Below, piece by piece: positions 5,158 to 56,195 of a DNA stretch of 59,289 bases; within the stretch, counting starts at the first letter, position 1, and each line of letters begins with the position of its first letter. The DNA is taken from IMG/VR virus record IMGVR_UViG_3300045120_000279, positions 1-59,289 of that record; one strand, given 5' to 3'. The translations under genes and the position numbers were made by a program. Origin of the DNA: a virus (Duplodnaviria; Caudoviricetes). Below the pieces are notes generated by a model. It saw only the letters and a list, made by a program, of their open reading frames with translations, did not search any database and had not been told where the DNA came from.

Positions 5158-8100
5158 ATGCCAACCGATTGGTCGGAATTTACCGCTGACGACAGTGCGG
5201 CCGCCGCAGGAGTGGACTGGTCGCAGTTCGAGGCCGACACGAACGCCGTGGCTAAAGCCCCTGCTCCAGCTCTACCTCGGAATTCCGAGGTAGCTCCACA
5301 GGACACCAGCAACTACTTCCTCAACCCGCCGCCGTCGCCCACCAGCCCAGAGCTGGAAGGCATCTACGCCAAGGCACGCAAGGACGCCCGACCGACCAAG
5401 GCCCAGCTGGCTGACCAGCAGGCGGAGATTGCCGCCCGTGGTGAGGTTGGCCTGACCGATTACCTGGCCAGCCCATTCACCGCTGCGGCTCGCATTGGCT
5501 GGAAGGCCACAGGCCGGGCACTGCAAGGTCTCGACGCGCTGGCCGCTTCAACTCCACCTGGGATTCTGAACGACATGGAGTTCGATCCCGAGTGGGATAA
5601 GAAGCGCGCTGCGATGACCCCTGAGCAGAAAAGGAAGGAGCTGGAGGCTGGTCCGCTCTTCCAGTTCGGCCAGGGCATGCACGACACGGCCGGCGAGTCC
5701 TTCGTCAACGTGGACCCAGAGGGTATCCCCACCAAGCTCGGTGAGGGCGCCGGTGGCTTCCTGCCTGCCGTGCTGACGGGTCCTCTGGCACCGGCGGTGT
5801 TCGGGTTGCAGACGGCCGGTGAGCAGCTGACCCAGGGATATGACGAGCTGATCAAGCAAGGGGCTGACCCTGGCACCGCAGCCGACACGGCCGCCAAGCG
5901 GGCGGTGCAGAACGGCACCATGCAGGGTCTCCTGTTCGAGTTCCTGCCCAAGCCGCTGAAGAGCATTGGTGACACCGCGCTGGACAAGCTGGCCTACGAA
6001 GGCACCAAACGGTGGCTGGCTGGCCGTGTGGCCAACACCGCCAAGGGTGCAGCGTTCGGCGCTGGCACTCAGGTCGCAGCCAACCTGAGCAATGAGCACC
6101 CGTGGTATGAGGGGATCGGGGAAGCCGCTGCGGGCATGGCGCTGATCGACGCCATCATGCCGCGCGGGATGACCAAGGCGGAGGTGAAGGAATACCGCCA
6201 GAACGCCCTGGACGCCGACATAACCAGGCAGCAGGTGGAGTTCAACATCACCCGTGAGGCTTTCCGAAAGCACCTGCGGGAGAAGGCGCAGCTCACTGAC
6301 GAGCACTTGGGCGAGTTGGACCGGCTGCAATACGCCGTGAAGAAAGGTGATACGCTGACCCCGGAGCAGGCCGACCGGCTCAAGGCGTTGGAGTTCCTGA
6401 CCGGAGCCGAGAAGAACGTCCTGCTGCCTGAGCAGAAGGCCATGGTGGATCAGGTGGCCAAGGAGCAGGGCATTGACTGGCGGGAGCAGACTGAGGAAGG
6501 GATGGGTCACGACCAATACACCGGGCGCGTGGCCTACTACGACACCAAGGCCGGCAAGGTGGTGATCAACCCGGCAGAGTTGTCGCTGGTCATGTCGGGC
6601 ATCAAGCCCGCCCGTCGCAAGGCCTACCTGGAGTCGCTGCTGGCGGAGGAAAACATCCACGGCATGGTCACCGACAAGCAGGCTGTGGACTTCGTGCGCA
6701 ACGCCACCCTGGCTGAGAAGGAGGCAGCTGTCCGCCGCTACACTGGCACCGCCAGCGGCCGAACACTGGAAGAGGGTAAGAAGATTTCTGAGGTTGAGCT
6801 GGGGCATGAAATGATCCGGGCCAAGATTCAGCAGTTGATGGGGATCAAGCCCACGGAGCTGGCCTCCTCGTCAGCCGGATTACACCGGGAGCTGACCGCT
6901 GGCCTGCTCAAGATTGAGAACATCATCCAGGCCGTGCGCGAGGTGGCGGCCCGTGAGAACAAAGACAAGCCGGTCAACTTGCAGAACGCCATCCTGGAGA
7001 CGGTGTGGCACAAGATCAACACCGTTAAGGAGCAGGCTGGGGTTGACCGGGAGAACCAGCCGTTCAGCGTGCGGCGCAGCGACGTGGAGGCCATGACGCC
7101 GGAGGAGCAATCGAAGCTGGGGCATAAGGCCGGCATCGAATACGGCATCACTCTTGGCAAGGACGACGTGCCCGCACTGGAGAAGAGCTACAACCAGGCC
7201 CAGGAAGAGATGGGCAAGATTTTCGAGGGTGGCTACGACCAGTCCAAGGAGAAGAAGTGGGCTGCTGCGTTTGGTCGCTCCAACTTCTACGGTGGTGCGC
7301 TGCAAGGGGCCACCAAGGGCGAGCACAAGGCCGCCGCTGGCAACTACGACCTCTACGTGAAGAGCCAGCAGCAGCCAGCGTCCGTGCGGCGCCCGGATTA
7401 CAGCAAGACCGAAGGAGACATTGAGGACCACCTGAAGACGGTAGAGCAGGGCATTCACTTCGTCAGCACGTTGATGGGTAAGCCCAAGGAGCTGCGTGAG
7501 GAGGCTGACAAACTTGAGTCGTTCATCATGGATCGAATCCATGATATTGATGAAAAGGAGGGCACAAATTACCACGAAGATGCTCCTCCGTCCGAATTCT
7601 CAGTAAAGATGCCCGACGAGCTGATGGACCTGAGTCCTGGAATCCACAATCTGGAGCAGGCTCTGGAGTGGGTGGGCAGGCTGCGCCACCGAGAAATTGT
7701 TAATAGAACAGATCAGCAAGGATTCAGCCCTGCCTCCCTCCGACGTGGCGAGAAGCTGAAGGACCGATTGCAACGGCAGGCTGCCGAGCTGCGCCTGCGC
7801 AAGCTGGAGGCCGAAGGCGTGCCCATCCCCGAGGAGCTGAAGAAGACCTTGGGTCTGCGTGAGCACGGCACGGTCGAGCAGCCAACGCCAGTGCCGCCAG
7901 AGGAGCGCACCAGCACCAACTTCCCCCGGTTGACCAGTAAGACCATGGAGGCGGAGGCAGAGGCCGAGATCAACCGGCCCACCAATGCCAAGGGCAAGCT
8001 CAAGATGGCTGAGGCCAAGTCTGAGATTGGTCGCAACAACCCAGCGCCCGGTGAGAAGGTCAGCCGCATGCGCGTGGAGGCCGAGCGGCCCAGCTTCGAC

Positions 8101-11100
8101 CGGTTCGCCAAGAAGATGCGGGACGTGACGGTGGACGTGAAGAAGGAGCAGCTCCAGGAAATCTGGGCTGACCGGGTGTGGGGTGAGCTGACCAAGGCGT
8201 CCCCCGAGCGGCTGGCTGAGCTGCGCAAGGCGTTGGGTCTGGAAGGCAAGTATGGCAGCCGGGCCATGGGTGAAGACCCGCTGGGCCGGCGGGACATCAC
8301 TGGGCCAGAGAAGGCGCCAGAGGTCACCAGCGAACAAGCCATGCGGCAGCGGGAGATTTTGCGGAAGCGGATTGCGAAGCTGGAGGAGGATGCGAAGCAG
8401 AAGCTGCGGGATGCGGACAACTACGAGGCGAACGTGACCGAGGAGTCGGCCAAGCCCCGGGAGGGTGAGCTGTTCGGTGCCACCGACCAGGGCCAGGCGC
8501 TGCGGCAGCAGGCGTTCGAGCTGCGCTACAAGGCGACTGTCATGCGTCGGAGCCTGGAGGCAGCCGGCGACGAGTCGCGCACCCTGCGGCGTAAGGCGGA
8601 CGTGCGGCCCATGACGCATGTGCCCATGGGCGAGGTGCTCAAGGAGGCCAGCGGTGAGGCGAAGAAGCGGCTGACCGAGTTGCAAAGCCAGCTCAAGTCC
8701 ATGGAGGACGCCGGAGTTCCGAGCGACGACAAGGATGTCATCCGGGTTGAGAACGAGATCGAAGATTTACAGCAGAAGGTCCGAGGTGAGTCCGGCGTGC
8801 TCAACCGTCCGAACCGTCCGGCGGAGCGCGCCGGCATGGCCGGCGTGTCTCAGGCGGCCTACCGCCAGAAGGTCATCCGCGCCATTGCCCAGCAGCTGAT
8901 CGGGGAGTCCTACAAGCATGAGAACCGCCGGGCCAACATGGACCGCACGGAGATTTCCGTTGATGACGTGGACTTCACCAACAAGAAGACCCAGGTGGGC
9001 TCGTATTACGAGATCACCCCCGGTGACCTGGAGATCAAGCGCGACGCTCACGGCAACGTGCCCGACATCACACCGCCACTCCTGGCCAAGATTTTGCGGG
9101 ACCAGGCGCGCGGCAAGAACACCGACCCCGAGAGCGCCAGCCGCCGGGTGTTGGTTGTTGTGGGGCCGGACAACAAGGTGCACCTGCTCTCCGTCTACAA
9201 CGACGCCGGTCGCACCATGGTGACCGACCCGGAAGTCCGGGGTTCTCACCGTCCCTACCGGGAGCTGACCTCCGGGTTTATCAAGAAGTATCACCCAGTG
9301 TCCACCCTGCTGCTCAAGGACCCAGTCAAAGGTCTGCGACAGGAGTTGACTGGCATGGCTGAGTTCCGAGACCGCATTGGCCAGGAGGCCAAGGAGCGAT
9401 CCGAGGTGGGTGACAACCTGCTAGAGGGTCTGCACCCGGAGCAGCACGACGTGGAGGGCACGGCAGGTCTGGAAGGGAACATGGGCCTGTTCCAGGGACC
9501 CAAGGCGGGCAACATGGACCTGGAGCAGCGCAACCCTGCCTTGCACTCCAAGGCGCCACTGAGCCGGCTGGAGGCGTTCATGGTCTCCAAGTATGAGTCC
9601 ACCCGGGAGGTGCGCGACGCCATTGAGGACCTGCAACTGAACTTGAAGGAGGGCCGGAAGCTCAGTCCGCGCGGCGTGGTTCTAGTCAACGCCTTCCGCA
9701 AGATTTCAGAACGGATTGAGGCCGGCCGTAAGATGAACCCGGAGATCAGCAGCGACCCGGAGCTGAGCCAGCAGCAGACCATTGACCGCGTGGCCAACCG
9801 GCTGATGTGGTTCAACCAGTCGCCCACTCCAGTCAAAGCCATGCTCCGGGAGTTCGGCTCCCAGCTGCCTGAATCTCTACCTCGGAATTCCGAGGTAGGA
9901 CGGGAGATTCAAACTCCCCCCAAATACAGCCCAAACCTGCACCGCGCGTTTCGCCGTGGGTCAGACAAGCCCATGCTGCCACGGGTGCCTATCAAGCCAC
10001 CCACCCGTCAGGACGTGTTCGCCGGGCCGTTCCAGCGCAAGGCTGCGCCGTCGGGTGAGCTGGGGGCTGACCGGCCTTACATCCCAGAGGGCATGAAGGC
10101 TGAAGCTCCCGGTGAGCGGGAGGCCGGCATCAAGGAGGAGCGCGGCTACCAGCTGGAGGAGATGCGAGACAGGGCGCTGCGCAACGTCATTCGCACCATG
10201 CGCAAGCGGGGCAAGGTGGTCCCGGTGGATGTGGCGCTCAAGAACATTGGTGACATGACCCCGTCGGACATTGCCGAGATGAAGCTGCGCGGACCAATGT
10301 CCACGCGCCGCGTCGAGATTCCCACTGATCTGACTTGGATTGGTAAAGCGGAGAACCTGAGCGATATGTTCCGCAGGTTTCAAAGGGCGGCCTCCATGGC
10401 GCTGGAGAACAAGGATAAGGGTCAGAGCTTGAAGATGGCCAAGCAGGCCCTTGACTGGTTTGAAATATACCACGAGCAAATGCGCCAAGGGCTGCGTGAT
10501 GAAGAGTTCACCACCAAGATTCCCGGTCCTGACAGCCAAGCGGAGAGTGAGTTTCAGGACAAGGTGAGGCAGGCGATCCCGCTGGCCGAGCAGGCCAAGA
10601 AGGTTTTGGCTGACTGGATTAAGCGGGAAGAGGGCGAACAGTCCTTCCCCGCCTCCGTCCGCCGTGACTACGTCCACGACCTCACTGGCGCTCAGGAGAA
10701 GAAGGTGCCGTTCACGCCGACATCCAACTACTGGATGGATCGGGATGGGAATGTTTACAAGGTGCTAGACCACGAGGATGGGGCCTACAAGATCATTCAG
10801 TCGTCCGACAACAAGTCCACCACCAAGGGATTCTCCGACACCAGCGAGCTGATTCATAAGCGTGGATTCGCCCGCATTGCGCTGGACCGGGACAGAAACT
10901 ATGGCGTGTTTGTGCAAGCCAACGACATCACCCCGTCGCAGCGCAAGGCACTCAAACGAATCAGTGAGGACCACAACATTGGGGTCACCTGGGATCAATG
11001 GCCAGGAGGCAAGCAGGAGCTGTTCAAGCCGTGGAGCCCGTCGTCGGTGCGGCGGGAAAAAATCAAACGGTATTGGGACCCGGATGTCGAAAACCGTGGA

Positions 11101-14552: not shown

Positions 14553-14941
14553 GCGGTGGTGATGATGGTTATTTCCGTGCGCTCCTCTTTTTCCGTGTGA
14601 ACCTTTTCGGAGCAGACCCGTCCAGTGAGCACACACCATTTGTCGTCTGGGATGACCTCAGCTTGGACAAGTAGGTCCTGTATTGCCTTGATGTCGTATC
14701 CGTCATAATCGCAGGGGCGCGTGGAGTAGACGACAAATGTGATCTCAAAGCGTTTTGCAGTGCCATACCAGCACGGCGCTTCTCCCTCACCAATACCGAC
14801 CAGTGGACCCCTTTGAGTTGGTTGCGGGTGCACGGCACATACCCCGGCAGAACCAGGGTGAACTTTGGTCTCGTCTTCATGTTTTACTTGGTCTTCGATT
14901 CGTTTTCTGAGTTTGGGGTCGAGGGTGGATAACTTGATCAC
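14549..14941 (-). CDS. RusA-like Holliday junction resolvase (catalytic half; see frameshift finding)
   Basis: RPCDYDGYDIKAIQDLLVQAEVIPDD...ERTEITI resembles the RusA DxDN..K...D.L....DD pattern. Confidence 0.6.
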   Translation of the reverse strand: MIKLSTLDPKLRKRIEDQVKHEDETKVHPGSAGVCAVHPQPTQRGPLVGIGEGEAPCWYGTAKRFEITFVVYSTRPCDYDGYDIKAIQDLLVQAEVIPDDKWCVLTGRVCSEKVHTEKEERTEITIITTA

Positions 14942-15771
14942 GGCTTCCTCCAGATCAGTTGACTGGTCATGCTGTCGAAGTGTTGCTTGGTCCCACCCTT
15001 CTGCACGAACCCGCGCAGGTCCTTGGTGGGCAGGGTAAGGATGCAGCTCGGAATTCCGAGGTGCTCCGAAAGGCCGATGGCGCCTTGAATTCCCGGGTTG
15101 ACCACATGGCCGTTGACCTCCCGGTCGTTGTCCACGTCGGCCACGATGACCGCGCGACGCACGTGAGTATTCTTGATGTAATCCTGGAGCATGAAGATGC
15201 CCCCAGAGCAGTTGAACCGGCCAATGGGCAGCAGCCCGATGGATAGGCCGGCCGCACAGTCAGTCGGCCCCTCCACGATGACGATCTCCGACTTCTCGGG
15301 GATGCCACCCGGAATGAACAGGCCGTTGTGGCCTCCGGGATTGCACCACTTCTTGCCGTCCATGGCCCGCATACGGATGCCAATGAGGTGGCCCTTGCCG
15401 TCACGCATTGGGAAGCCCAGCACGTCGGCCCGGTGAGCCCGCACGCAGCCCAGCAACTGCAACGAGTCAGCCCTGACTCCGATTTGAGCGGCGGCGTGTT
15501 CCAGGTGCTGGAATGTGGTTCCAGACAGCCAGCGGTTGTAAATTTCCGAGCTGTTAAAAAGTGGCTCAGGTTTTTTACGCGCGGGCCGTGTGGGGATTTG
15601 ATAGCTGCCGTTCTTGGCGTGCAGGTAGCCGACGGTGCCGTCGGTGAATACTTTCTGGCGAGAGCTGGTAACCCGCATGCAGATGTCAATGTCGATGCCG
15701 CTGAGGCACCAGGTGTCCTTGCTGCATACCTTGCAGGGATGGGCCCGTCCCACCCGGGTGAACTTACTCAC
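14938..15771 (-). CDS. DNA primase-like protein (Zn finger + TOPRIM)
   Basis: PCKVCSKDTWC Zn finger; FPMRDGKGHLIGIRMR; IVIVEGPTDC and VIVADVD TOPRIM motifs; probable GTG start at 15771. Confidence 0.8.
   Translation of the reverse strand: MSKFTRVGRAHPCKVCSKDTWCLSGIDIDICMRVTSSRQKVFTDGTVGYLHAKNGSYQIPTRPARKKPEPLFNSSEIYNRWLSGTTFQHLEHAAAQIGVRADSLQLLGCVRAHRADVLGFPMRDGKGHLIGIRMRAMDGKKWCNPGGHNGLFIPGGIPEKSEIVIVEGPTDCAAGLSIGLLPIGRFNCSGGIFMLQDYIKNTHVRRAVIVADVDNDREVNGHVVNPGIQGAIGLSEHLGIPSCILTLPTKDLRGFVQKGGTKQHFDSMTSQLIWRKP
15043..15064. repeat. Palindrome variant inside primase gene
   Basis: GCAGCTCGGAATTCCGAGGTGC; 14-bp core intact; translated as HLGIPSC. Confidence 0.85.
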
Positions 15772-16051
15772 TCTTGGCCTCCTCCGGTGGTTGTAGGTTG
15801 AGCTGGAGCGTGCGCATCTCCGCCAAGATTTCCTTGAGGGTGGCCAGACGCCCTTCGCGCCAAGCCACCTCACGAGTGAGAATCTTAATGTCCTCCCGCA
15901 GACCCGATATGCGGTTGCCCTCCATGGTGTCACGCAGGCGGGTGCACAACAGGTCCTTGTTGACGATCTCCTGATTGGTCTGGACGATCTCGTTGAGGTA
16001 GCGGTCGATCAGCTCCACCACCTCCGCCTCGTCCTTGTAGAATCGCTTCAT
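15764..16051 (-). CDS. Hypothetical coiled-coil protein
   Basis: Overlapping start/stop with both neighbours. Confidence 0.6.
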   Translation of the reverse strand: MKRFYKDEAEVVELIDRYLNEIVQTNQEIVNKDLLCTRLRDTMEGNRISGLREDIKILTREVAWREGRLATLKEILAEMRTLQLNLQPPEEAKSE

Positions 16052-16679: not shown

Positions 16680-18317
16680 CTATCGCTTCCATCCGTTGTT
16701 TGCGAGGGAGTTCAGGGCGTTGGAAGCCGCCTCGAAGCTCATGTTTGGGTCGTTGTAGCCGTAGCGTCTGAGAGTGGCAACCTGCTTGATGGTTGCCAGC
16801 TTTTTGTTCATGCGCTCGAACATGGCATTGAGCACCTGACGCGCGTGGGCGTAGGGCATCTGGTCTGGGTTCATGCCGGCCCGCAGGAGGACAGCCTTCT
16901 GCTTGTCGGATAGCTGCTTTCCCTGGTCCCAGCCACGCTCCTTGACGGGCGTGAGTTGGAGCAGGTCGAACGGGTCGATGGTCTTGGTGTTGAACCTGGC
17001 CTTGGCCACCACTCTGGCCTTGCGGGCCTCCTCGGCCAGTCGCCGGGCCTCGATCTCGTCCCTGATCTTCTGCTCCTCGGCGTCCAGGGCGTCCGTGATC
17101 CGCACCGCACCACCAGTCTCCTTGGCCTTGGCAATGGCCATCTCTACCGCCCGGTCACTGACCTTACCGCCCAGAATGTCGGCTGCGCTGATCAGTTTGT
17201 GCCTTCCAGAGTTCCCCACGAAGTCCACAATGAGGCAGGAGGGCTTGCCTGAGGCCGCTATGGCCGCTAGGCGGCCTTCTGGAGTCGGGATGCCATCAAC
17301 CAGTCCAGGAAGGGTCCTGGTCGCTCTACCGGCCATCTGAGCGTAGAGGGAACGGCTTTTGGTGGGCCTGGCCATGATGATAACCTCCACCCCAGGGTCG
17401 TCGAACCCCTCGGTCAGGACGCCGCAGTTCACAATGACCTGCACCTCTCCCCGCTGGAACGCAGCCAGCATGTCCCGCCGCTCGTCCTTGTTGGTCTTGC
17501 CGCATACCCAGTTGGCCATGCCCTGCCGGTGGCGGTTGAAGATGTTGCACAGCATCTCGGCCTGGGCCACGCCAGCGGTGAACACAATGGCCCGCCGCTT
17601 GCCCACAATGTCGATGGTGGCCGACGCCACGCCTTGTAGCTTGTCCTCGGCTTCCATGACCTTGGCCAGGTCGGCCTGGTTCAGATCACCAGCCGTGGTG
17701 CGCATGTCTCCGAAGTCCAGACCAGCAATGCTGACAAACTGCTGGTCAATGGGCACTAGCCAGCCGCCGTGAATGAGGTCCAGGATTTCAATGTCCATGG
17801 CCACCGTCTCGAATATCTGGCCAAGCGCCTCCTCGTCCGTGCGGTCGGGTGTGGCGGTGACGCCCAGAATCTTGATCTCGGGATTCCGAGCCTTGTAGTA
17901 GGCCATCACCCGTCGGTAGCTGTCGGCCGTGCTGTGATGGCACTCGTCGAAGATAAGGACTCCAAAGTCCTTGGGGTCGAACTGCCGCATGCGCTCGCCG
18001 GAGTTCTGGGTCTGCACCGTGGAGACAATGACCGGCATTTCACCGAGCAGGTCAGCCTCGGATCGGAAGTCGCCCATCTCCACGCCGCACTCCAGCCCGG
18101 TGACAGACTTGATCTTGTTACGCGCCTGCCAGATCAACTCCTCCCGGTGTGCTATGACCATGGCCCGTCTGGGCTGCATTGATTGAATGACCATGGCGAA
18201 CACCATGGTCTTGCCACCGCCGGTTGGAAGAACTGCAACCGTTGATGTTACACTTTTCCACTCCTCGATGATGTTGTCGTGCGTTTCGGTCTGGTAATCC
18301 CTGGGTTGGAATTTCAT
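16680..18317 (-). CDS. Superfamily 2 (DEAH/ResIII-like) DNA helicase
   Basis: PRDYQ, LPTGGGKT, DECHH, TAT, LTEGFDDP and QMAGRATR motifs. Confidence 0.93.
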   Translation of the reverse strand: MKFQPRDYQTETHDNIIEEWKSVTSTVAVLPTGGGKTMVFAMVIQSMQPRRAMVIAHREELIWQARNKIKSVTGLECGVEMGDFRSEADLLGEMPVIVSTVQTQNSGERMRQFDPKDFGVLIFDECHHSTADSYRRVMAYYKARNPEIKILGVTATPDRTDEEALGQIFETVAMDIEILDLIHGGWLVPIDQQFVSIAGLDFGDMRTTAGDLNQADLAKVMEAEDKLQGVASATIDIVGKRRAIVFTAGVAQAEMLCNIFNRHRQGMANWVCGKTNKDERRDMLAAFQRGEVQVIVNCGVLTEGFDDPGVEVIIMARPTKSRSLYAQMAGRATRTLPGLVDGIPTPEGRLAAIAASGKPSCLIVDFVGNSGRHKLISAADILGGKVSDRAVEMAIAKAKETGGAVRITDALDAEEQKIRDEIEARRLAEEARKARVVAKARFNTKTIDPFDLLQLTPVKERGWDQGKQLSDKQKAVLLRAGMNPDQMPYAHARQVLNAMFERMNKKLATIKQVATLRRYGYNDPNMSFEAASNALNSLANNGWKR

Positions 18318-19237
18318 TTCGCCTCCCTCATTTGCTTACTCTCCTTGGGAGCGCACGTGTCGTAACGGAACTTGCTGATCAGCCCCTTGCCGAAACAAAA
18401 ACGGCATCCGTTGGACTGGGTCTCCGGATGGCCGGCGCACACTGTGCAAACCGCATACGGAATGGCCAGCCGCATGTTGTGCCATGCCTTTTCCAGGTCG
18501 GCGAGCAGACCCGAGAAGTTGATCTCGGCATACAGAATGTCCTTGGCCTGCTGATGACCTTTGAACGCATTGATGATGGCACTCAGCTGCTTGGTCTCAC
18601 TGATGATCTCACCCTGTCGCTCCCAGAACTTCTGCACCTTCTTGGGGATGGGATAACCGAGAGCATCCTTGACGACCACCTCGGCTGGTGGTGCGGCTTT
18701 GACCTTGGGTTTTGGAGCTACCTCGGAATTCCGAGGTGCGGCGGCGGCGCGCTGTTTGCCGTCGGACGCCGTGCGGGTGACGGTCTTCACGACCTCCTTC
18801 TTTGCCTCCAGCTCCTTGCGGTATTTGGCGACCGTCTTGTCGTCCACGTCCGTCAGTTTGGCGAGCTGGACGTTGCTGAGTGTCGGCCACTCCTTCACGG
18901 CAGCCATGATGCACTGCACCTTGTCGTCCGGGCTGCGCGGTAGTCCGTGAACCGTATTGGCGAGCAGCGCGTATTGCAGGCAGTCGGTGTAGGTGCCCGT
19001 CTTCACCTCTGCCTCGATGGACTTGCGTCCGATCATGCGGGTGGCCTCGCAGCGGTGAGCACCGTCGCCCAGATACATGCGGCTCTCTTTGCTGTCCCAG
19101 AACAGAACGATGGGTGGCATCTTTTTCTTGGTCTGGTAAGCCTCGGCGTATTGAAGAACCGTATCCTTCTCAATGGTGTAGCGAACCTTCGGGCTCGCCT
19201 TGAAGTCGATGTCACTCAGGAAGATTTGTTTGGTCAT
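18314..19237 (-). CDS. ParB/Srx N-terminal domain protein with HTH and C-terminal Zn finger
   Basis: MPPIVLF..YLGDGAHRCEA (ParB GxHR-type box); ANTVHGLPRS; LSNVQLAKLTDVDDKTVAKYR HTH; CTVC..CRFCFGKG. Confidence 0.8.
   Translation of the reverse strand: MTKQIFLSDIDFKASPKVRYTIEKDTVLQYAEAYQTKKKMPPIVLFWDSKESRMYLGDGAHRCEATRMIGRKSIEAEVKTGTYTDCLQYALLANTVHGLPRSPDDKVQCIMAAVKEWPTLSNVQLAKLTDVDDKTVAKYRKELEAKKEVVKTVTRTASDGKQRAAAAPRNSEVAPKPKVKAAPPAEVVVKDALGYPIPKKVQKFWERQGEIISETKQLSAIINAFKGHQQAKDILYAEINFSGLLADLEKAWHNMRLAIPYAVCTVCAGHPETQSNGCRFCFGKGLISKFRYDTCAPKESKQMREAK
18718..18739. repeat. Palindrome, 20/22 match, in frame (APRNSEV) in ParB-HTH gene
   Basis: CTACCTCGGAATTCCGAGGTGC. Confidence 0.93.
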
Positions 19238-19354
19238 GGGGTTGGGTTTTGTGGGTTGTGAGTTCGTGACACCCACCCACGATCAGCATGATCAGGCCGA
19301 GTATCACTATGGTTGAGGCCACGAAATTGGCCGGGTCAATTTTTGGATCAGACT

Positions 19355-21389: not shown

Positions 21390-22324
21390 ACCTCACTCTC
21401 CTTCTTGAGGTCGGCCACCACGTCGTCCCACCGCTTGACGATCTCCGCCATAGTCTTGGGGAACTTGGTGTTCGTGCGCTCGATGCTGTCGCCCATGTCG
21501 GCCAAACCCAGTCCAGCCATGTAGTTGATCAGGGTGGACTCGGTGATGTCTTCCCGCAGGCAGAGCAGCCGGATTTTCTCCGTGTTCTCGTCGCTGGTCT
21601 CGGTCACGATCTCGGCGTCCGAGGGCAGTGGCGGTTCTACCTCGGAATTCCGAGGTAGGTCTGGGACGGGCTCATTCCCGAAGATGGGCTTCGAGATCGC
21701 CTTGCGCTCCGTGTGCGCTGTGTCCATCTCCTCCTTGAGGTAGAAGCCACCCAACATGGTCGGGAAGGCCGTCCGCATGGCGTCGGCCTCGGCACACTTG
21801 CAGATCATCCCCGCCGGGTCGTCCGTCCAGATTTTTGTGTTCTTCTTGAACCGGGAGAGCCGGACCTTTTTGTAGATGGGGATGGACCTGTTTTTGAAAT
21901 AGACGGCGGCCCAGCCACCCAGCAGCCGGTCGGTGTCTCGGGTATAGTCGCCCTCGACTTCAATCTCCGCGCCGTCCCGAATGACCACCACTCCGGACTT
22001 CATGCCGTCGAAGTCCGGGTTGACCTGGGCGCGCTTGAGGAACGCCTGGTGCGCGGTGATCAGTGAGAACTTGGGACCGTCCTGCGTGTCGTAGCCTAGC
22101 ATGAAGGCGTCGCCCTCGAACGGGTTGAGCCGGCGTGCCTGCGCCATCATCAGGAATTTCATGCACTCGTTGTCGCTGGGCAGCGCGCCGCTCTTGGTTG
22201 GTTGCGCGACCAGGTTCTTAACGATGCTGATGCTGAGTTTGATGGAGTCTTTCCCGCCGAACGGGACGAACTCCATCATCTTGGTTTCTTTTGTGGTGCT
22301 TACTGCGTTTGTGGGTTCACTCAT
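21386..22324 (-). CDS. bet: RecT/Red-beta-like single-strand annealing protein
   Basis: LNPFEGDAFMLGY, GGWAAVYFKNR, W..DPAGMICKCAEADAMRTAFP. Confidence 0.88.
   Translation of the reverse strand: MSEPTNAVSTTKETKMMEFVPFGGKDSIKLSISIVKNLVAQPTKSGALPSDNECMKFLMMAQARRLNPFEGDAFMLGYDTQDGPKFSLITAHQAFLKRAQVNPDFDGMKSGVVVIRDGAEIEVEGDYTRDTDRLLGGWAAVYFKNRSIPIYKKVRLSRFKKNTKIWTDDPAGMICKCAEADAMRTAFPTMLGGFYLKEEMDTAHTERKAISKPIFGNEPVPDLPRNSEVEPPLPSDAEIVTETSDENTEKIRLLCLREDITESTLINYMAGLGLADMGDSIERTNTKFPKTMAEIVKRWDDVVADLKKESEV
21637..21658. repeat. 22-bp palindrome, exact copy, in frame (LPRNSEV) in recombinase linker
   Basis: CTACCTCGGAATTCCGAGGTAG read directly. Confidence 0.97.
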
Positions 22325-22410: not shown

Positions 22411-23739
22411 TTAACCTCCCAACCCGTGCCCTTGACCGTATCCCGGATACCTGACCTCACCGTTGGGAATGGGATGGCCCTCGTAGTCCATCCGCTCCTC
22501 CTCGTCCGTCTCGGTGGGCAGACCAACCTCACTGGGCGCACCACCGGCTTTCTCCTGCTTCAGCGCCCGCTTCAGCTCCCGGTTGAGTTCTTGCTGGTGA
22601 ATCTTGGCGACCATGTCCGAGTAGGCCGACACACTCATGTCGTGTTTGAACATGAGGTCCATCATGACCAGCTCCTCGTCCTCCAGCGTCATCAGCATCT
22701 CGGCTATTTTGATGAACATATCCGACGTGAAGGCCAGGAGCTTGGGATCGTTTTTGGGAGTGCCCCTCGACTCCTTGATCAGTTCCTTTATGTCGGCCTC
22801 ACAGCGGTCCTTGTCCCACTTGGTGACGGTGACGCATCGGTCCAGGTAAGTGCGCTGGGCCACAACGTATCCACTCGAAAAGTGGCCCATTGGCTGGACG
22901 GTCGGCCGAGGTGGTGCGTCGATGATGTAGTTCTCCTTCCACACTTCGGGGAAGGTTGTCTCTGGTGCTGGTGGCGTGCACATCTCGAAGGCCGCCAACC
23001 GGGCGTCCACGTCATCTGGCATCATGGACCGCATGTGCTCGGGGATGGTGGCCTTGACAGCCGTCACATCCCAGAATGTGTCCAGCTTGATGGACGACAG
23101 GTGGAAGCGGGACTGGTAGACGCGGGCATGAATGTCGTAGTGATTGCTGCCCACCTTACCAATGGTGATGTGAATGCCGTCCTGTCCGACCTCGTTGGCC
23201 GTGTCGGTGCTGGACTGGAACGCACTGCCTGAGCAGTGGTGATGGATGGTGCAGTAATACAGCCACTCGTCACCGAACTGCGCGCGCTGGATGGCCGTCT
23301 GTGGGTGCTCGTCCAGCTCCCGCGTGGTCATGCCCGTGCGACCGCGCTGCGGGAACGCCCACGCCTTCCACTCCCGAGTGGTGGCGTTGACGTAGACGCG
23401 CACCTGCGCCTCGCTGTGGTGCTCCGCCTGCGTCCACTCGAAGAACGCCATGACCTCGTCCCACCACTGGCGGTTGGGCACGTTCATCTTGGGACCCTCC
23501 CACTCATACTTGGCGGTCGTCTCGGTTACCGTGTGCTCGAATATGCAGGTCATCAGACCGGTGGCCTGCTTCACTTGTTTGATTTTGCTCATTGTATTTG
23601 TGTTACTGGTTTGACTGACTGGGGTTTCAATTTTCCGTTCGACGAGTGGCAGTTGCTGCGGGTAGGTCTGGGGAACTTGCCCCATGCCTCGTGCCCCGCC
23701 GTCACTCACCAATGATTTGCGATGCTTCTTCCGGCCCAT
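22411..23739 (-). CDS. JAB/MPN+ metallo-isopeptidase (prokaryotic JAB); start may be 23592
   Basis: SEAQV (catalytic Glu), WAFPQ, TIHHHCSGSAFQSSTD (HxH..S..D), DGIHITIG. Confidence 0.85.
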   Translation of the reverse strand: MGRKKHRKSLVSDGGARGMGQVPQTYPQQLPLVERKIETPVSQTSNTNTMSKIKQVKQATGLMTCIFEHTVTETTAKYEWEGPKMNVPNRQWWDEVMAFFEWTQAEHHSEAQVRVYVNATTREWKAWAFPQRGRTGMTTRELDEHPQTAIQRAQFGDEWLYYCTIHHHCSGSAFQSSTDTANEVGQDGIHITIGKVGSNHYDIHARVYQSRFHLSSIKLDTFWDVTAVKATIPEHMRSMMPDDVDARLAAFEMCTPPAPETTFPEVWKENYIIDAPPRPTVQPMGHFSSGYVVAQRTYLDRCVTVTKWDKDRCEADIKELIKESRGTPKNDPKLLAFTSDMFIKIAEMLMTLEDEELVMMDLMFKHDMSVSAYSDMVAKIHQQELNRELKRALKQEKAGGAPSEVGLPTETDEEERMDYEGHPIPNGEVRYPGYGQGHGLGG

Positions 23740-25024: not shown

Positions 25025-25032
25025 AATTTTCC

Positions 25033-25692
25033 TTAGAGTTCACCGGTTTTGAACGTCTCCTGACGTGTTAGATTTTGAACCAATTTGTGCGGGAGGAATT
25101 TCTCGTCCTCCTGCGTGAGTTTGATGGCCTCCATTCCCCACACGACGTAGAGATGGGCAGCCAGGGCGGCGGCCATGAAGTTGGCCGTGACAAGCTGCAC
25201 GTTGGCGGTCTGCGCCTCACCCGTGCAACCGATGGACCGGGCGCGCGGGTCGTTGCGCCGGTCGTTGAGCATTTCCGGATACATGACCCGAGGGTCAAGC
25301 CGGGTGGTTTTCCAGTAAGGCAGGTAGACGTAAGCCTCGCTGGAATGAACCTCGTTGGCCGCAAAGATCACGCGGCAGTCGGTCATGTCGGAAGCCCGCA
25401 GCGCGGCTATGCGCCCAGGGTTGTTATCCACCACGCACATCAGCCAGTCCTGTGCGGAGTGCGCAATCAGCGTCTCCGAATACCAGGTCGGGATGTGGTG
25501 GCAGTTGTATTTCTCGGCCAGGGCGAACGCCTTGTTCTGGCCGATTTCTTTTTCTGTGAACAGCTGACGGTTGAGGTTTTTCTTCTCCAACTTGTCGCCA
25601 TCCACCAGCGTGACGTTGTCCTTGCCTGCGAGCAGGCACATGGTCGGGGCCAGCCAACTGCCGACGCCGCCAACTCCAATGATGTAGATCAT
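25033..25692 (-). CDS. ThiF/E1-like ubiquitin-activating enzyme
   Basis: IIGVGGVGS, LVDGDKLEKKNLNRQLF, IGQNKA, CVVDN, candidate catalytic Cys in SIGCTG, QLVTANFMAA. Confidence 0.92.
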   Translation of the reverse strand: MIYIIGVGGVGSWLAPTMCLLAGKDNVTLVDGDKLEKKNLNRQLFTEKEIGQNKAFALAEKYNCHHIPTWYSETLIAHSAQDWLMCVVDNNPGRIAALRASDMTDCRVIFAANEVHSSEAYVYLPYWKTTRLDPRVMYPEMLNDRRNDPRARSIGCTGEAQTANVQLVTANFMAAALAAHLYVVWGMEAIKLTQEDEKFLPHKLVQNLTRQETFKTGEL

Positions 25693-41629: not shown

Positions 41630-41651
41630 CTACCTCGGAATTCCGAGGTAG
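41630..41651. repeat. 22-bp palindrome, exact copy, intergenic, 16 bp upstream of the C-methyltransferase start
   Basis: CCCTACCTCGGAATTCCGAGGTAGGG. Confidence 0.97.
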
Positions 41652-46655: not shown

Positions 46656-47587
46656 CCCGAGTGCTTTTCATCAACCCGGTGCAGCCGCGCTGCGGTGTCC
46701 ACCAATACGGGCTGCGCCTGTTCGACATCATGAAGATGTCCAAGGAGCTGGAGTGCACCTACCAGGTCTGCCCGGCCGAGATTGAGATTGGCTCGCTCTA
46801 TTTCTACGACGTGGTGATCTACAACGTGCACCCTGGCATCAGCAACGCCATGCACAACGCGCCGTTCCCGTGCAGCGTGAAACAAATCGCCATCTACCAC
46901 GACGGCCCCATGAACGGCCCGTTCGACCGCTGGTTGCTGTCTGACTCGTCGGCCCCGGGCTACGGCAACCTGACTACCATTGGCCGGCCGCTGCCCGAGT
47001 GGGATGTGCTGCCTCACGGGGACCTGAGCGGCCCCGTCAAGATTGGCCTGTCTGGACTGGTGGGAGCCTGGGCTGCTGACATGGTCAGGTTTGTGGCTGC
47101 GAACATGCCACTGGCGCTGATCCGCCTGCACCTGGCGCCATCCGACCACTGTGACCCAAGCGGTGCCCTGGCCCGCGCGGTTGGGCAGGCTTGTCTCAAC
47201 CTCGGAAATCCGAGGTTGGTCGAGGTGGACTACGAATTCAAACCGCAGGCCGAGGTGCTGGAGTGGCTTTCCGCCAACGACCTGAACTGCTTTATCCGCA
47301 GCACTGGCAGTGGTCCCATGGGGGTTTCCTCAGCCTTGGACATGGCTCTGGCCGTGGGACGGCCCATCGCCGTGAACAACAACCCCATGTTCCGGCATAT
47401 CACCCGGGTGAGCCCGGAGATCATGGTGGAGAACACGCCGCTGCGGGAGATCATCGCCATGGGACCCAATCCGCTGATACCCCATTGGCGTCGCAATTCC
47501 CGCCGTGCGGTCATGGAGGAACTGGAGAACGTCATCCACTCCGTGATTGACTCGGAAAAAGCAATCATTGAAAACCGGGGTCAATAG
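46652..47587 (+). CDS. GT-B-like glycosyltransferase
   Basis: VLFIN...CGVHQYG; GVSSALDMALAVGRPIAVN..MF. Confidence 0.65.
   Translation: MTRVLFINPVQPRCGVHQYGLRLFDIMKMSKELECTYQVCPAEIEIGSLYFYDVVIYNVHPGISNAMHNAPFPCSVKQIAIYHDGPMNGPFDRWLLSDSSAPGYGNLTTIGRPLPEWDVLPHGDLSGPVKIGLSGLVGAWAADMVRFVAANMPLALIRLHLAPSDHCDPSGALARAVGQACLNLGNPRLVEVDYEFKPQAEVLEWLSANDLNCFIRSTGSGPMGVSSALDMALAVGRPIAVNNNPMFRHITRVSPEIMVENTPLREIIAMGPNPLIPHWRRNSRRAVMEELENVIHSVIDSEKAIIENRGQ
47197..47218. repeat. Palindrome variant with symmetric substitutions in GT-B gene
   Basis: CAACCTCGGAAATCCGAGGTTG; translated as NLGNPRL. Confidence 0.88.
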
Positions 47588-47602: not shown

Positions 47603-50032
47603 ATGAAGTTCAAAGACCCGGCCCAGGTGGACAGCATCTGCTGGCAAATGCGTCAATCGGACTACCCTCGGGGCAAGAACCGCGCGCTGATCAATAACCT
47701 CTTCAACGGCGTGCCGCCCTATTCGGAAGACGAGGCCCTGGCCAACAACATCAGCGTAAACGTCAACGACCTTTCCTCCACCCGCGTTGGTCACGAGTCC
47801 CGCACCCAGTTCTACCAAGCCTTTCAGAAACCCGGAAATTTCTTCACCTGCCGCACGGACACCGGCGCTACGCACAAGCGGTCTGTTTATGGCACCATCG
47901 TGACCAAGGAGGTCAACCGGATCATGAAGCGGTCGCTTCCTTACATGGAGACGATGCGCTCCAAGTTTGCGATGGACGTGCTGCATGGCATTTCCCCGGC
48001 CGGCTTCCGTGACTCCAAACGCTGGCGCCCGGACGCGCTGGCCATCGAGGACGTGTTCGTGCCCGCCAAGACGCTCCTCTCCATGGAGAACCTGCCCTTC
48101 TTCGCCATCCGCAAGACCTTCACTGCTCCCGAACTGATCAAGCTCACCAACAAGGCTGTGGCTGATCCGGGCTGGAACATGCCCATGGTGCGCGACTGCA
48201 TCAAGTGGATCGACAAGGAGTCCATGGCCCTGATGGGCGCGAACTGGCCCGACGTGTGGTCGCCGGAAAAGGTGAACGAGCGCGTCAAGGGCGACGGCGG
48301 GTTTTACATTGGTGATGCGGTAGCCACCATCAGCGCATTCGACTTTTACTTCTGGTCGGACGAGGGCGGCAAGGAAGGCTGGCGGAGGCGCATGATCCTT
48401 GACTACTGGGATTCACCGGCGGCCGGTGGCGCGGAACTGACCGCCAAGACCGACGACTTCTTCTCCGGCTCCAAGGGACGTTTCCTCTACAACCCGGGCG
48501 AGCGCGTGTTCGCCACTGAGATCGCGCAGATCATCAACTGGCAGTTCGCTGACCTGTCGGCCGTGGCGCCGTTCCAGTATCACTCAGTTCGGTCACTGGG
48601 CTTCCTGCTCTACGCCGTCTGTCACCTGCAAAACCGGATGCGCTGCAAGTTCAGCGAGTCGGTCTTCGAGCAGATGCTCGTCTACTTTCGGATCAAGTCG
48701 GGTGACGACGCCCAGCGCGCGCTCAAGGTGGACCTGATCAACCGTGGGTTCATCGACGACACCATCGACTTCGTGCCGGCCAACATGCGCTACCAGATCA
48801 ACGCGCAGCTGGTCGAGCTGGGGCTCCAGGAGAACAAGAACATCATCTCGCAGAACTCCGCCTCCTACACGGCGGACAACGGCTCCACGCGAGGCAACGT
48901 CGAGAAGACCAAGTTCGAGGTGATGGCCGAGACCACCGCCATGACCAGCCTCGTCTCCGCCGGGTTGCAGCAGGCTTACGCTTACCAGCTGCCGGAATAC
49001 CGGGAGAGCTTCCGCCGGTTCACCATCAGGGGCTCACCTGACCCGGAGGTCCGTCAGTTCCAATCCAACTGCATTCGCCAGGGCGTGCCGCAGAACATTC
49101 TCTACAACCCGGAGTGTTGGGACCTGGAGCCCGAGCGCACCATGGGGGCCGGCAACAAGACCATGGAGATGGCCATTGCGCAGCAGCTCATGCAGGCTCG
49201 TAATCTTTACGACCCGGAAGCTCAGCGCCTTATTCTGCGCGACTTCACCCTGGCGGTGACGGAAGACCCCGCGCGAGCCCAGTCTTACGTGCCCGACAGT
49301 GTTGCCAAGATCACCGACTCCGTCCACGACGCGCAGCTGGCGGCCGGGACCCTGATGCAGGGCCTGCCGGTGGATGTGAAGTCCGGGATGAACCATGTGG
49401 AATACGTGGACACCCTGCTCCACTCGCTGGTCACGCTGGTGCAGCAGCCGGTGCCGCCGACGCCCGAGCGGATCAATGGTCTGAACATGATCGCCAACAA
49501 CATTGCTGGCCACCTCCAGATCATCGCGCAGAACCCGGAGGAGAAGCAGCGGGTCACGCAGTATCAGCAGCAGCTCTCCAAGGTCATGAACGCCGTGAAG
49601 GCCATGACGCAGAAGATGCAGGAGGCCCAGAAGGCCCAGGGCGGCGGTCAGGACCCCGAGACCCAGGGCAAGGTGCAGTCCATGCTCATTCAAGCCAAGG
49701 CCAAGGCGGAGTCCGGCGCCACCGCTCACGCGCAGAAAACGGCGCAGCGGCAGATTCAGTTCGAGATGGAGGAGAAGCGCAAGCAGGAGGCCTTCGACAT
49801 CGAGAAGCGGCGCGGCATGCTGGAGGCCGGTCACGAGTTCGGCAAGTCGCACATCGAGCATCAGCACGACCTGGCTCTTCGGAATTCCGAGGCCCAGGCC
49901 GAGCTGGAACACCAGAAGGCGCTGGACGAGCAGGCGCTGGAGTCGCAGAAGAAGGCCGACGAGCAGAAGATCATCACCGCCAAGAAGGCCGCTGCCGCCA
50001 AGCCCAAACCCGCTGCCAAGAAAAAGAAGTGA
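47603..50032 (+). CDS. Portal protein
   Basis: 809 aa with EKTKFEV motif and long Gln/Lys coiled-coil C-terminus; precedes scaffold and capsid genes. Confidence 0.7.
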   Translation: MKFKDPAQVDSICWQMRQSDYPRGKNRALINNLFNGVPPYSEDEALANNISVNVNDLSSTRVGHESRTQFYQAFQKPGNFFTCRTDTGATHKRSVYGTIVTKEVNRIMKRSLPYMETMRSKFAMDVLHGISPAGFRDSKRWRPDALAIEDVFVPAKTLLSMENLPFFAIRKTFTAPELIKLTNKAVADPGWNMPMVRDCIKWIDKESMALMGANWPDVWSPEKVNERVKGDGGFYIGDAVATISAFDFYFWSDEGGKEGWRRRMILDYWDSPAAGGAELTAKTDDFFSGSKGRFLYNPGERVFATEIAQIINWQFADLSAVAPFQYHSVRSLGFLLYAVCHLQNRMRCKFSESVFEQMLVYFRIKSGDDAQRALKVDLINRGFIDDTIDFVPANMRYQINAQLVELGLQENKNIISQNSASYTADNGSTRGNVEKTKFEVMAETTAMTSLVSAGLQQAYAYQLPEYRESFRRFTIRGSPDPEVRQFQSNCIRQGVPQNILYNPECWDLEPERTMGAGNKTMEMAIAQQLMQARNLYDPEAQRLILRDFTLAVTEDPARAQSYVPDSVAKITDSVHDAQLAAGTLMQGLPVDVKSGMNHVEYVDTLLHSLVTLVQQPVPPTPERINGLNMIANNIAGHLQIIAQNPEEKQRVTQYQQQLSKVMNAVKAMTQKMQEAQKAQGGGQDPETQGKVQSMLIQAKAKAESGATAHAQKTAQRQIQFEMEEKRKQEAFDIEKRRGMLEAGHEFGKSHIEHQHDLALRNSEAQAELEHQKALDEQALESQKKADEQKIITAKKAAAAKPKPAAKKKK

Positions 50033-51789: not shown

Positions 51790-51811
51790 CTACCTCGGAA
51801 TTCCGAGGTAG
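51790..51811. repeat. 22-bp palindrome, exact copy, immediately after the scaffold stop codon
   Basis: CTACCTCGGAATTCCGAGGTAG read directly. Confidence 0.97.
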
Positions 51812-56171: not shown

Positions 56172-56173
56172 TC

Positions 56174-56195
56174 CTACCTCGGAATTCCGAGGTAG
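56174..56195. repeat. 22-bp palindrome, exact copy, filling the gap between convergent genes
   Basis: TCCTACCTCGGAATTCCGAGGTAGGA between stops at 56171 and 56199. Confidence 0.97.

Follow-up and report, generated by a model that had tools for sequence, protein, structure and literature searches.

The phage genome and its palindromic sites

The window analyzed here, that is, the whole stretch of 59,289 bases, is a complete IMG/VR virus record (IMGVR_UViG_3300045120_000279) of an uncultured soil phage, along which a 22-bp palindrome, CTACCTCGGAATTCCGAGGTAG, recurs in nine exact copies and four close variants. The first and last 23 bases of the record are identical, and we therefore treated it as a 59,266-bp circle from which the terminal overlap is removed. 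The Logan assembly of a soil metagenome (run X1), probably the source sample, contains the phage as a single contig of 59,259 nucleotides (nt), with zero differences over window positions 20001-40000. Genes that could be named encode a helicase, a ParB-like protein, a PD-(D/E)XK exonuclease, a RecT-like protein, a protein with a weak primase match, ThiF-like and GroES-like proteins, and the large terminase subunit (TerL); searches of PHROG, Pfam, and NCBIfam returned no family for most of the window's proteins. Genes were called with our own heuristic, based on open reading frames (ORFs) and third-codon-position GC content (GC3), and the intergenic fraction, center orientation, and adjacency counts given below are accordingly approximate.

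Cultured relatives were not found by megablast of positions 1-25000 against 50,697 phage records. In tblastn searches, the best match to TerL was 27% identity over 30% of its length, in Streptomyces phages, and the ParB-like protein had only remote matches among phage records. The 22-mer is absent from a collection holding one genome each of 185,579 prokaryote species (genome_contigs), where none of 52 matches to the site pattern lies on a contig encoding a TerL relative; the exact 22-mer was also not found in a viral contig collection, which may leave out the window's own record.

The initial annotation of the window had reported the nine exact copies, variants at 15043, 18718, 24588, and 47197, and the intervals between them. 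All nine copies are present where it had placed them, with matches in 0 of 100 shuffled sequences, and the four variants exist. The pattern CTCGGANNTCCGAG, chosen without regard to spacing, reproduces exactly the 13 strong sites and all 13 gaps, including one of 8364 bp across the join that is correct on the 59,266-bp circle. A 16-base core, with up to three mismatches allowed, has 18 matches in the window, compared with 0.35 expected from shuffles. The array is confirmed as real and is no artifact.

Near-even spacing had also been proposed, and was assessed by 200,000 random placements on the circle for each of six site definitions. Under all six, the sites are more regular than chance. For the 13 sites, the coefficient of variation (CV) of the spacing is 0.316 (P = 5e-5), and no gap is shorter than 2919 bp (P = 1.5e-5), while the nine exact copies alone yield a CV of 0.413 (P = 0.007). 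The other definitions gave P = 2e-4 (11 sites with up to three mismatches), P = 3e-5 (14 sites with up to six mismatches), P = 4e-4 (16 sites matching TCGGANNTCCGA), and P = 0.0016 (18 sites matching the 16-mer with up to three mismatches). The variants had been said to sit where a large gap would otherwise exist, and this is the case: the three largest gaps between exact copies, which would be 11,760, 6,168, and 10,160 bp, are those filled by the four variants. Comparison of the flanks found nothing in common between copies, in agreement with the earlier observation. The weaker sites noted near 17873, 29535, and 49874 do exist as matches, but are doubtful as true sites. The match at 17873 encodes a conserved helicase motif, NPEIK, that is also present in a relative lacking the array (G001), and a further weak match, at 57357, encodes the invariant G-N-P of the terminase; neither is counted here as a proven site.

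Placement of the sites relative to genes

As first described, sites occur both between genes and in frame inside unrelated proteins (Table 1). Five of the 13 are intergenic (30947, 36180, 41630, 51790, and 56174) and eight are coding, one being at codons 4-10 of a 204-amino acid (aa) ORF (27805) and seven inside genes, several of them deep in long genes; all four variants are in coding DNA. Because the genome is about 92% coding (by rough ORF calls), five intergenic sites constitute an excess (P = 0.0025). Five in-gene copies (5272, 9877, 18718, 21637, and 27805) are read in the frame that yields (L/A)PRNSEV, and the variants at 15043 and 47197 lie in the frame in which an exact copy would end in a TAG stop codon. 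The in-gene copies sit in linkers, such as the insertion in the RecT-like protein and the disordered segment (residues 180-198) of the ParB-like protein. Of the nine exact copies, four are at start codons or precede them by 9-18 nt, and two directly follow stop codons; separate canonical terminator hairpins adjoin the copies at 51790 and 56174. Sigma-70-like promoter matches were at shuffle level in three scans, and none coincides with a site.

Table 1. Palindromic sites and associated genes in the window
Feature	Position	Strand	Context
Exact copy	5272..5293		giant ORF, codons ~39-46 (LPRNSEV), in an Ala/Pro-rich linker
Exact copy	9877..9898		giant ORF, aa ~1582, LPRNSEV frame as at 5272
Variant GCAGCTCGGAATTCCGAGGTGC	15043..15064		primase-like gene; an exact copy here would create a TAG stop
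Variant, 2 mismatches	18718..18739		ParB-like gene, linker codons (APRNSEVA, aa 180-187), disordered in the model
Exact copy	21637..21658		RecT-like gene; insertion of 8-11 codons relative to G001 and G003
Variant ACCACTCGGAATTCCGAGTTGG	24588..24609		within a 440-aa ORF
Exact copy	27805..27826		codons 4-10 of the 204-aa ORF (ATG at 27835)
Exact copy	30947..30968		between minus-strand genes
Exact copy	36180..36201		9 nt upstream of ATG 36170; end of a non-coding stretch of ~300 nt
Exact copy	41630..41651		15 nt upstream of ATG 41614 (413-aa ORF)
Variant CAACCTCGGAAATCCGAGGTTG	47197..47218		339-aa ORF; TAG forbidden in frame, other arm changed to match, dyad kept
Exact copy	51790..51811		right after a TAG stop; a separate strong terminator-like hairpin (51825-51854) follows after 13 nt
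Exact copy	56174..56195		flanked by the convergent stop codons of a 152-aa ORF and the terminase large subunit gene
Weak site (16-mer, 1 mismatch)	49874..49895		809-aa ORF; status uncertain
Weak site	57357..57378		terminase L-G-N-P-N codons; synonymous codons follow each genome's motif type
Primase-like gene	14938..15933	-	same helicase-primase module
SF2 (superfamily 2)-type DNA helicase	16680..18317	-	4-nt overlap between its start and the end of the candidate binder gene
Candidate binder gene (ParB-like)	18314..19276	-	ParB/Srx-fold N-domain, helix-turn-helix, disordered linker, four-cysteine C-domain
Co-occurring ThiF/E2-like block	22411..27182	-	442-aa, 440-aa, ThiF/E1-like (25033-25740), 142-aa, weak E2-like (26127-26855), and 87-aa ORFs

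Arrays in related phages

Relatives were collected as 23 IMG/VR loci by way of the terminase, with one more added through a terminase profile, and five long records were compared whole. The analogous arrays that the initial annotation had proposed looking for are present in four of these five. The array-bearing relatives (G002, G003, G004, and G005) share with the window's phage, labeled G000 among the compared genomes, a common center, GGA-NN-TCC, flanked by symmetric arms that are specific to each genome. The arm is CTACCTC in G000, and the arms are CAGCCTC..GAGGCTG in G004, CCAGCTC..GAGCTGG in G003, CTATCGG..CCGATAG in G005, and ACCTC..GAGGT, with a free center, in G002; shorter contigs (L005) carry CTGGTCC..GGAyCAG, recorded as a fifth type. 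Dyads of this kind number 5-13 per genome, versus 0.1-0.2 in shuffled sequence. No dispersed motif was detected in G001, a complete genome with 75% TerL identity, by either an exact dyad count or an approximate-repeat search. Three methods likewise failed to reveal an array in G011 and G012, and none was detected in the 62%-complete G008.

Five metagenome contigs have flanks 69-76% identical to the window and keep all 22 bases of the palindrome; at 72% identity, the chance of an intact 22-mer is 0.0007 per site. Two of the five have it at window positions, one in the RecT linker (contig L099, at the position of copy 21637) and one at the start of the 204-aa ORF (contig L098, at the position of copy 27805, where the G003 orthologue also has a site). 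The other three have it elsewhere, L095, L096, and L097 carrying copies where G000 has none. The positions in the ParB linker, in the RecT linker, and at the start of the 204-aa ORF are conserved between genomes of 40-76% identity. Intact 22-mers in diverged flanks, together with the genome-specific arms, show that the sites are old, are maintained base for base within a sub-lineage, and are partly fixed in position. The array is under selection on the sequence itself, and the arms change in step between lineages, in a co-evolution of the sites. In the terminase, the L-G-N-P-N codons read CTC GGA AAT CCG in G000 and TTG GGA AAT CCC in G005-type phages, the synonymous codons in each case resembling the genome's own motif.

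The claim of a regular array is strongly borne out in G000 but much more weakly in the relatives. Spacing was regular in G002 (P = 0.015) and G004 (P = 0.025), and not significantly so in G005; in G003 the result was not significant for a 14-mer, with P = 0.002 for the 10-base core. When combined under a single 14-mer definition, the relatives yield a modest Fisher P = 0.011.

A ParB-like protein as candidate reader of the sites

The ParB-like protein encoded at 18314-19276 is the candidate binder of the array. An AlphaFold (AF2) model, built from a 24-sequence alignment and having a mean predicted local distance difference test (pLDDT) score of 86.3, comprises an N-domain (residues 16-130), a helix-turn-helix (135-158, with helices 135-142 and 146-158), a disordered linker (180-198), and a C-domain (200-320). 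In this model the N-domain has the ParB/sulfiredoxin fold, and the helix-turn-helix follows directly after it. The best Foldseek matches in the PDB were Noc (7ol9, at the top), ParB, PadC, KorB, Spo0J, and sulfiredoxin, with E between 4.5e-6 and 1e-3, and the alignments to Noc and ParB span 140-168 columns. VIA-align, which is independent of Foldseek, returned PadC, pNOB8 ParB-N, sulfiredoxin, and KorB with Z of 10.2-10.7; pNOB8 ParB-N aligns over residues 13-183, including the helix-turn-helix, and KorB (8qa9/8qa8) scored E 2e-4 in Foldseek and Z 10.2 in VIA-align. In the family searches, PHROG 1033, "ParB-like partition protein", matches the window protein at E 2.9e-9, and PF02195 (ParBc) is found in seven of 23 homologues. 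One homologue (P0002), encoded on a 57.7-kb contig, is 86% identical. A DGxHR motif, aligned to GERRWR of Noc, is invariant in all 24 homologues. The C-domain contains four invariant cysteines and yielded only generic helical-hairpin matches in VIA-align (Z ~7).

The candidate gene itself carries a site in its linker codons in four of the five array genomes (G000, G002, G003, and G005). R-[N/K]-S occurs at this spot in the linker of 11 of the 24 homologues, with E next in nine, and R-[N/K]-S-E is the peptide image of CGG-AA(T/A)-TCC-GAG. GGA-N2/3-TCC dyads likewise occur within or next to the genes of more distant N-domain homologues. Provirus G017 has one dyad, inside the gene; provirus G019 has one inside the gene and one 2.3 kb away; and G015 has seven copies clustered around the gene for its ParB-N homologue, in what looks like a classical centromere or operator arrangement. 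In G015 (contigs L076 and L078), a phage of 39% GC, the 21-bp palindrome AACTGAGGAAWTTCCTCAGTT is found at 44, 216, 282, 1541, 1610, 54410, and 54582, and the gene at 122-643; some of these copies are possibly duplicates within a terminal repeat.

Comparison of domains suggests that the N-domain and the array go together. In G001, which lacks the array, the C-domain is kept and the N-terminus is unrelated, so that loss of the N-domain matches loss of the array. In G014, the C-domain is joined to a different, non-ParB N-domain, and the genome has a different palindrome, TGTCAACCGCGGTTGACA, in eight dispersed copies (up to two mismatches), one of them at codons 82-88 of the gene's own sequence; here a domain swap matches a motif swap. 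These copies (contigs L073-L075) are at 3827, 7298, 13776, 23951, 24491, 28572, 41023, and 50758. The existence of an array alongside a non-ParB N-domain indicates that such arrays can exist without a sliding clamp of the ParB type. G016, with no array, carries one 20-bp palindrome, located within its own gene.

The replication module and the ThiF/E2-like block

The gene order exonuclease, ParB-like gene, helicase, primase is conserved among the relatives. Judged from coordinates, the ParB-like gene adjoins the helicase gene in 10 of 13 genomes. Of the 12 relatives with the C-domain, 11 also have both helicase and primase matches; the exception, G005, is a contig of 74% completeness in which a helicase was matched but no primase. 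A complex prediction for the helicase with the C-domain returned no answer (score 0.00, mark 0.32), and is evidence neither way.

A second association is with the ThiF/E2-like block of five to six genes, whose ThiF/E1-like protein has a Pfam match at E 3.6e-16 and whose product of 26127-26855 has a weak match to Prok-E2_D. The orthologues of its 87-aa protein end in ...ANSK or ANTK and not in GG. The block is conserved in G002-G005, G011, G012, and G014, and is absent from G001, G013, G016, G018, and G020. Dispersed arrays are present in six of the eight genomes with the block versus none of the five without it (one-sided Fisher P = 0.016, uncorrected for phylogeny). Among the genomes compared, they occur only where both the block and the putative adaptor, that is, the protein carrying the C-domain, are present.

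The combination recalls PRTRC, the "ParB-related, ThiF-related cassette" of mobile elements (TIGRFAM/NCBIfam; PMC3318190), which, as far as the available description goes, likewise has, on a mobile element, genes for a ParB-fold protein and a ThiF/E1-like protein together with other small proteins. The window's block differs in that it is not contiguous with the ParB-like gene and in that its matches are far below the cut-offs: PRTRC_ThiF scored 36.9 bits against a cut-off of 144.75, the 442-aa protein scored 17 bits against 101.8 for PRTRC_A, and neither the ParB-like protein nor the other seven proteins scanned had a PRTRC match, and none of the remaining PRTRC models was matched. With all scores far below the NCBI cut-offs, we rejected the identification of the block as a PRTRC system.

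Comparison with known systems

Among published phenomena, the closest is the 17-bp dyad repeat seen in Cluster O mycobacteriophages. Corndog and its cluster mates have dozens of invariant copies of TGTTCGGNNNCCGAACA in a genome of ~70 kb, for which the authors predict a dimeric DNA-binding protein engaged in a process other than transcription initiation; the available text also describes an orphan ParB-like protein in Corndog, without a ParA (PMC4351075). Like the sites in the window, these repeats have an A/T-rich, unoriented center and occupy a mixture of intergenic, 5'-proximal, and in-gene positions, so far as that text details them, and the half-sites are similar (TTCGG in Corndog, CTCGG in the window). 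The window thus resembles the Cluster O type in its many invariant dyads inside and outside genes and their free A/T-rich center, but differs in sequence and spacer (N3 in Corndog, N2 in the window), sharing neither the motif nor a homologous lineage. Our own scan of Corndog detected 34 sites, which are irregularly spaced (CV 1.06, P = 0.77) and crowd the right arm, and none of these is inside gp90, the ParB-like gene. The gp90 sequence has a motif of the GxRR type and no detectable similarity to the window's ParB-like protein (best E 2.9).

KorB is a ParB-fold protein that acts over kilobases from dispersed palindromes on plasmid RK2 (PMC11790492). The likeness to the window lies in the ParB fold with a helix-turn-helix and in a short palindrome present at multiple dispersed sites, including ones far from promoters. 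By the portion of the literature at hand, KorB differs in being a plasmid-borne CTPase clamp with the canonical motif and with KorA/TrbA and ParA (IncC) as partners, whereas the window's protein is encoded by a phage, has DGxHR and a four-cysteine C-domain, and is accompanied by no ParA-type gene that we found. RK2 has 12 OB sites on a plasmid of ~60 kb, a size similar to that of the phage genome studied here; to our knowledge, OB sites have not been reported to be regularly spaced. Noc, a ParB-fold paralogue without a ParA partner, similarly acts chromosome-wide from many dispersed palindromes. It has many sites on the Bacillus chromosome and carries a membrane-targeting helix; this helix, its bacterial chromosomal setting, its canonical motif for cytidine triphosphate (CTP), and its lack of a link to a helicase-primase pair set it apart from the window's protein.

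Two other comparisons are more distant. The Microbacterium Cluster EG phages have an 18-bp inverted repeat, GATCAACCNNGGTTGATC, in 8-10 copies located 14-22 bp upstream of start codons (PMC7302621). These are short intergenic palindromes kept despite diverged flanks, as in the window, and their half-site resembles the G014 palindrome TGTCAACC..GGTTGACA; however, they are confined to the right genome end, and the available part of the report mentions no in-gene copies, regular spacing, or candidate binder (PMC7302621). Phage initiator proteins offer a parallel in gene architecture, combining an N-terminal DNA-binding domain with a helicase-tied C-domain, a gene upstream of that for the helicase, and a site in linker codons. 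Lambda O and SPP1 G38P are initiators with the origin inside their own gene, and these origins consist of clustered, adjacent repeats beside an AT-rich unwinding region, at one or two loci. The sites in the window, in contrast, occur singly at intervals of ~4.5 kb, and beyond 20 nt their surroundings are not AT-rich.

The ParB-CTPase fold is widespread in phages, with binding of CTP, ATP, or GTP, according to a survey in whose available text a search for terms found no mention of ThiF, PRTRC, or palindromes (PMC12704722). Our literature search for dispersed palindromes together with ParB in phage genomes found no paper, which does not disprove that one exists. What is distinctive here is the regular spacing, the in-frame placement in linkers, and the link to a ParB-fold protein of a replication module.

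Interpretation of the array

From the sequence comparisons and the structural model, the best explanation, which we hold with about even confidence, is that the sites are bound by a dimer of the phage's own 18314-19276 protein. The palindromes would then be cis-acting sites in duplex DNA, with one 10-bp half-site (CTACCTCGGA) for each subunit and a free 2-bp center, and this modular protein, as a dimer, would be their most likely reader. Some 13 sites, one per ~4.5 kb, would place the protein along the whole chromosome, using intergenic DNA where possible and linker codons elsewhere. From the sites, the protein may act (i) through its ParB-type N-domain, in a nucleotide-dependent manner, and (ii) through its C-domain, which always travels with the co-transcribed helicase-primase genes. 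If binding does occur, bringing replication machinery onto the DNA at many places is our leading, though tentative, candidate for its function; long-range regulation or organization like that by KorB or Noc is possible and comes next; an address for the co-occurring ThiF/E2-like module is a doubtful third; and other roles make up the rest. The gene's position and the constant C-domain argue for the helicase-primase replication module no less than for partition, shielding, or silencing.

The initial annotation had proposed a protein-loading grid, and this idea stands in part. Selected pairs of duplex half-sites, even spacing, and a ParB-fold helix-turn-helix protein that tracks the array are in its favor, but the DGxHR motif, the lack of a detected ParA-type partner, the weaker regularity in relatives, and the non-ParB array of G014 are not. 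Several further results weigh against binding by the ParB-like protein, or against the functions that we attach to it. The window protein matches no Pfam family at E<=0.01; it does not contain the canonical CTP-binding motif GERRxR(A), and because DGxHR replaces this motif, ParB-type clamp chemistry cannot be assumed. A crude pattern search for the deviant Walker A of ParA-type proteins (KGGxxK[ST]) found none in ORFs of more than 100 aa. In G004, which has the array, the gene itself is without a site. The main result against a simple rule linking protein and array is that G011 and G012 encode full-length homologues (35-39% identity) and the ThiF block, with no array found in either. In addition, the five GGA-type arrays form one clade, the genome comparisons being few and phylogenetically dependent, and the irregular repeats of Corndog indicate that even spacing is no general property of such arrays. 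AT enrichment at the sites extends only 10-20 nt to each side, the flanks at 40-100 nt being at the genome average; no AT-rich unwinding region was found at the flanks, weakening a reading of the sites as origins.

A broader version of this proposal, which we regard as unlikely, is that the array forms a grid of address tags. An adaptor whose DNA-reading N-domain can be swapped (here for one of ParB fold), and whose zinc-ribbon-like C-domain is constant, would be placed every ~4.5 kb, where it might recruit either the helicase-primase pair, for distributed and even initiation, or a ThiF/E2-like (PRTRC-like) machinery that marks or modifies the chromosome or its proteins.

It is possible, though again unlikely, that the sites are instead operators through which a different dimeric DNA-binding protein, be it a host factor or another of the phage's helix-turn-helix proteins, imposes a global program of transcription. 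Precedents include the stoperators of Cluster A mycobacteriophages and conserved inverted repeats of other actinophages. The copies near or at start codons, the two that follow stop codons, and the excess of intergenic sites in a largely coding genome are all consistent with operators, as are the start-proximal 18-bp repeats of the Cluster EG phages in the portion of that report available (PMC7302621), and with most of this phage's small proteins lacking a family assignment, another binder is conceivable. Against this stand the promoter matches, which do not exceed shuffle level or coincide with any site, and the eight coding sites, several of which are far inside long genes. A host regulon site is also unlikely because the 22-mer is absent from the genomes of the 185,579 prokaryote species. 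Moreover, operators for another protein would leave unexplained the regular spacing, the site in the ParB-like gene itself, and the joint loss of array and N-domain in G001.

The palindromes might otherwise function as hairpins in RNA or single-stranded DNA, serving as a terminator, a stabilizer of mRNA 3' ends, a processing or translation-control element, a priming signal, or a hairpin promoter. We consider this decidedly unlikely. To compare changes in the two arms, sites were picked by their distance to their own genome's consensus only. Single-sided changes outnumber compensated ones by 22:1 in G004, 59:6 in G003, 90:5 in G002, and 31:1 in G005. Across these four relatives, there are 202 single-sided changes, and complementarity among the double changes (13 of 34) is at the chance expectation of one third; over five genomes, compensated changes number 18 versus 14.2 in shuffles (P = 0.165). 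Because the arms decay independently in the relatives, the two half-sites appear to be read independently and not as a stem, and a protein dimer on duplex DNA would fit these patterns better than a hairpin of RNA or DNA. Complementarity past the 22 bp is at chance level (11-17 of 53 at each of five flank positions), and the sequence of the arms, not just their pairing, is fixed within each genome. The copies at 27805, 36180, 41630, and 56174 extend the palindrome by two variable yet complementary bases, a feature not seen in the relatives.

There is evidence on the other side as well. The RNA of a site folds strongly, into a stem of 9-11 bp with an AAUU loop (about -21 kcal/mol, z -4.3 to -5.8), intergenic copies lie at gene boundaries, and on the minus strand a lenient terminator scan accepts three of the nine exact copies (27805, 30947, and 56174). 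In G000 alone, five of six double changes stay complementary (P = 0.018), which would favor a hairpin, and in both variants in the TAG frame (15043 and 47197) the change in one arm has its match in the other. Even without selection, this complementarity in G000 could have arisen by template-switch correction of near-palindromes. The inner 6 bp hardly vary, so that the covariation data leave room for a short RNA stem. However, most copies have no U-tract, and two have a separate canonical terminator beside them. Of 26 asymmetric centers (AAAT or ATTT), 17 are oriented with the coding strand (P = 0.17), showing no consistent orientation to transcription, and Rfam yielded no match at gathering score. 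Intrinsic terminators were specifically rejected, since total counts in the lenient scan are at shuffle level.

Finally, the copies could be selfish or mutational products with no organizing role, such as a miniature palindromic element that is mobile, recombination sites, or sequences targeted by a nuclease of the homing or restriction type; we find this highly improbable. Nine copies are identical, the RecT copy resembles an insertion of 8-11 codons relative to G001 and G003, and site positions shift between relatives (L095, L096, and L097), all as might be expected of a mobile sequence. In addition, two Logan contigs of run X1 join the flanks of different copies, one contig for each junction: the first (at window 30946) runs from the flank left of 5272 into sequence right of 30947, and the second (at window 36204) from sequence left of 36180 into the flank right of 56174. 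The sequence shared at both is just 23-26 nt, and they could be rare recombinants between copies or chimeras. Opposing such an origin, there are no shared flanks, target duplications, or transposase, several positions are conserved across genomes just 40-76% identical, random insertion would not yield regular spacing, and a palindromic site of self-cleavage would be lethal unless protected. The arms differ between genomes and are uniform within them at conserved positions, which argues for change in place and not for recent spread.

Five further candidates were dismissed: repetitive extragenic palindromes (REP) or elements like miniature inverted-repeat transposable elements (MITE), because flanks are not shared and the 22-mer is missing from genome_contigs; an iteron-type origin like those of lambda O and SPP1 G38P, the sites being single and at least 2.9 kb apart, with AT enrichment over 10-20 nt only; N4-type hairpin promoters for a virion RNA polymerase, the giant ORF having no polymerase match and the sites not being confined to positions upstream of early genes; RNase III sites, for which the stem is too short; and Chi-like, DNA-uptake, or packaging signals, for which the element is too long and symmetric.

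Dispersed dyad repeats of phages have been described for a decade, and the available reports on Clusters O and EG give neither a binder nor a function. The relatives of this phage constitute natural experiments on the question: at least five arm variants on one center, a joint loss of array and N-domain, a paired swap of domain and motif, and a site within the candidate gene. If the ParB-fold protein does bind the sites, it would add a phage-borne, ParA-less member with many sites to the growing set of ParB-fold switches, and might link the fold with a ThiF/E2-like module or with the loading of replisomes. Regular spacing would in that event represent a rare example, in a bacterial virus, of chromosome-wide selection on the positions of cis-acting sites.

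Other features of the genome

The giant ORF that holds the first two copies (5158-14034, plus strand) encodes about 2960 aa and is located downstream of putative tail genes. It matches no Pfam family at E<=0.01, and parts of it are 32-53% identical to ORFs of 2611-3443 aa in relatives. A GroES/Cpn10-like gene (41759-42073, minus strand) has a Pfam match at E 2.2e-4, just above the cut-off, and a 251-aa protein (33567-34322, minus strand) has a weak match to Sigma70 region 3 (E 0.0029, below the cut-off). No tRNA genes were found in the window. Upstream of the terminase gene, short ORFs on the minus strand (30-290, 297-509, 59011-59193, and 58196-59287) extend across the join; all of them match the region of one 608-aa ORF in G002, and they could be a frameshifted gene or an error in ORF calling. 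The terminase match itself varies in length, being 2913 nt in L007 and L008 (the G001 lineage), 2547 nt in L025 (G003), and ~1880 nt elsewhere; the additional 650-1000 nt suggest an insertion, for example, an intein or a homing element.

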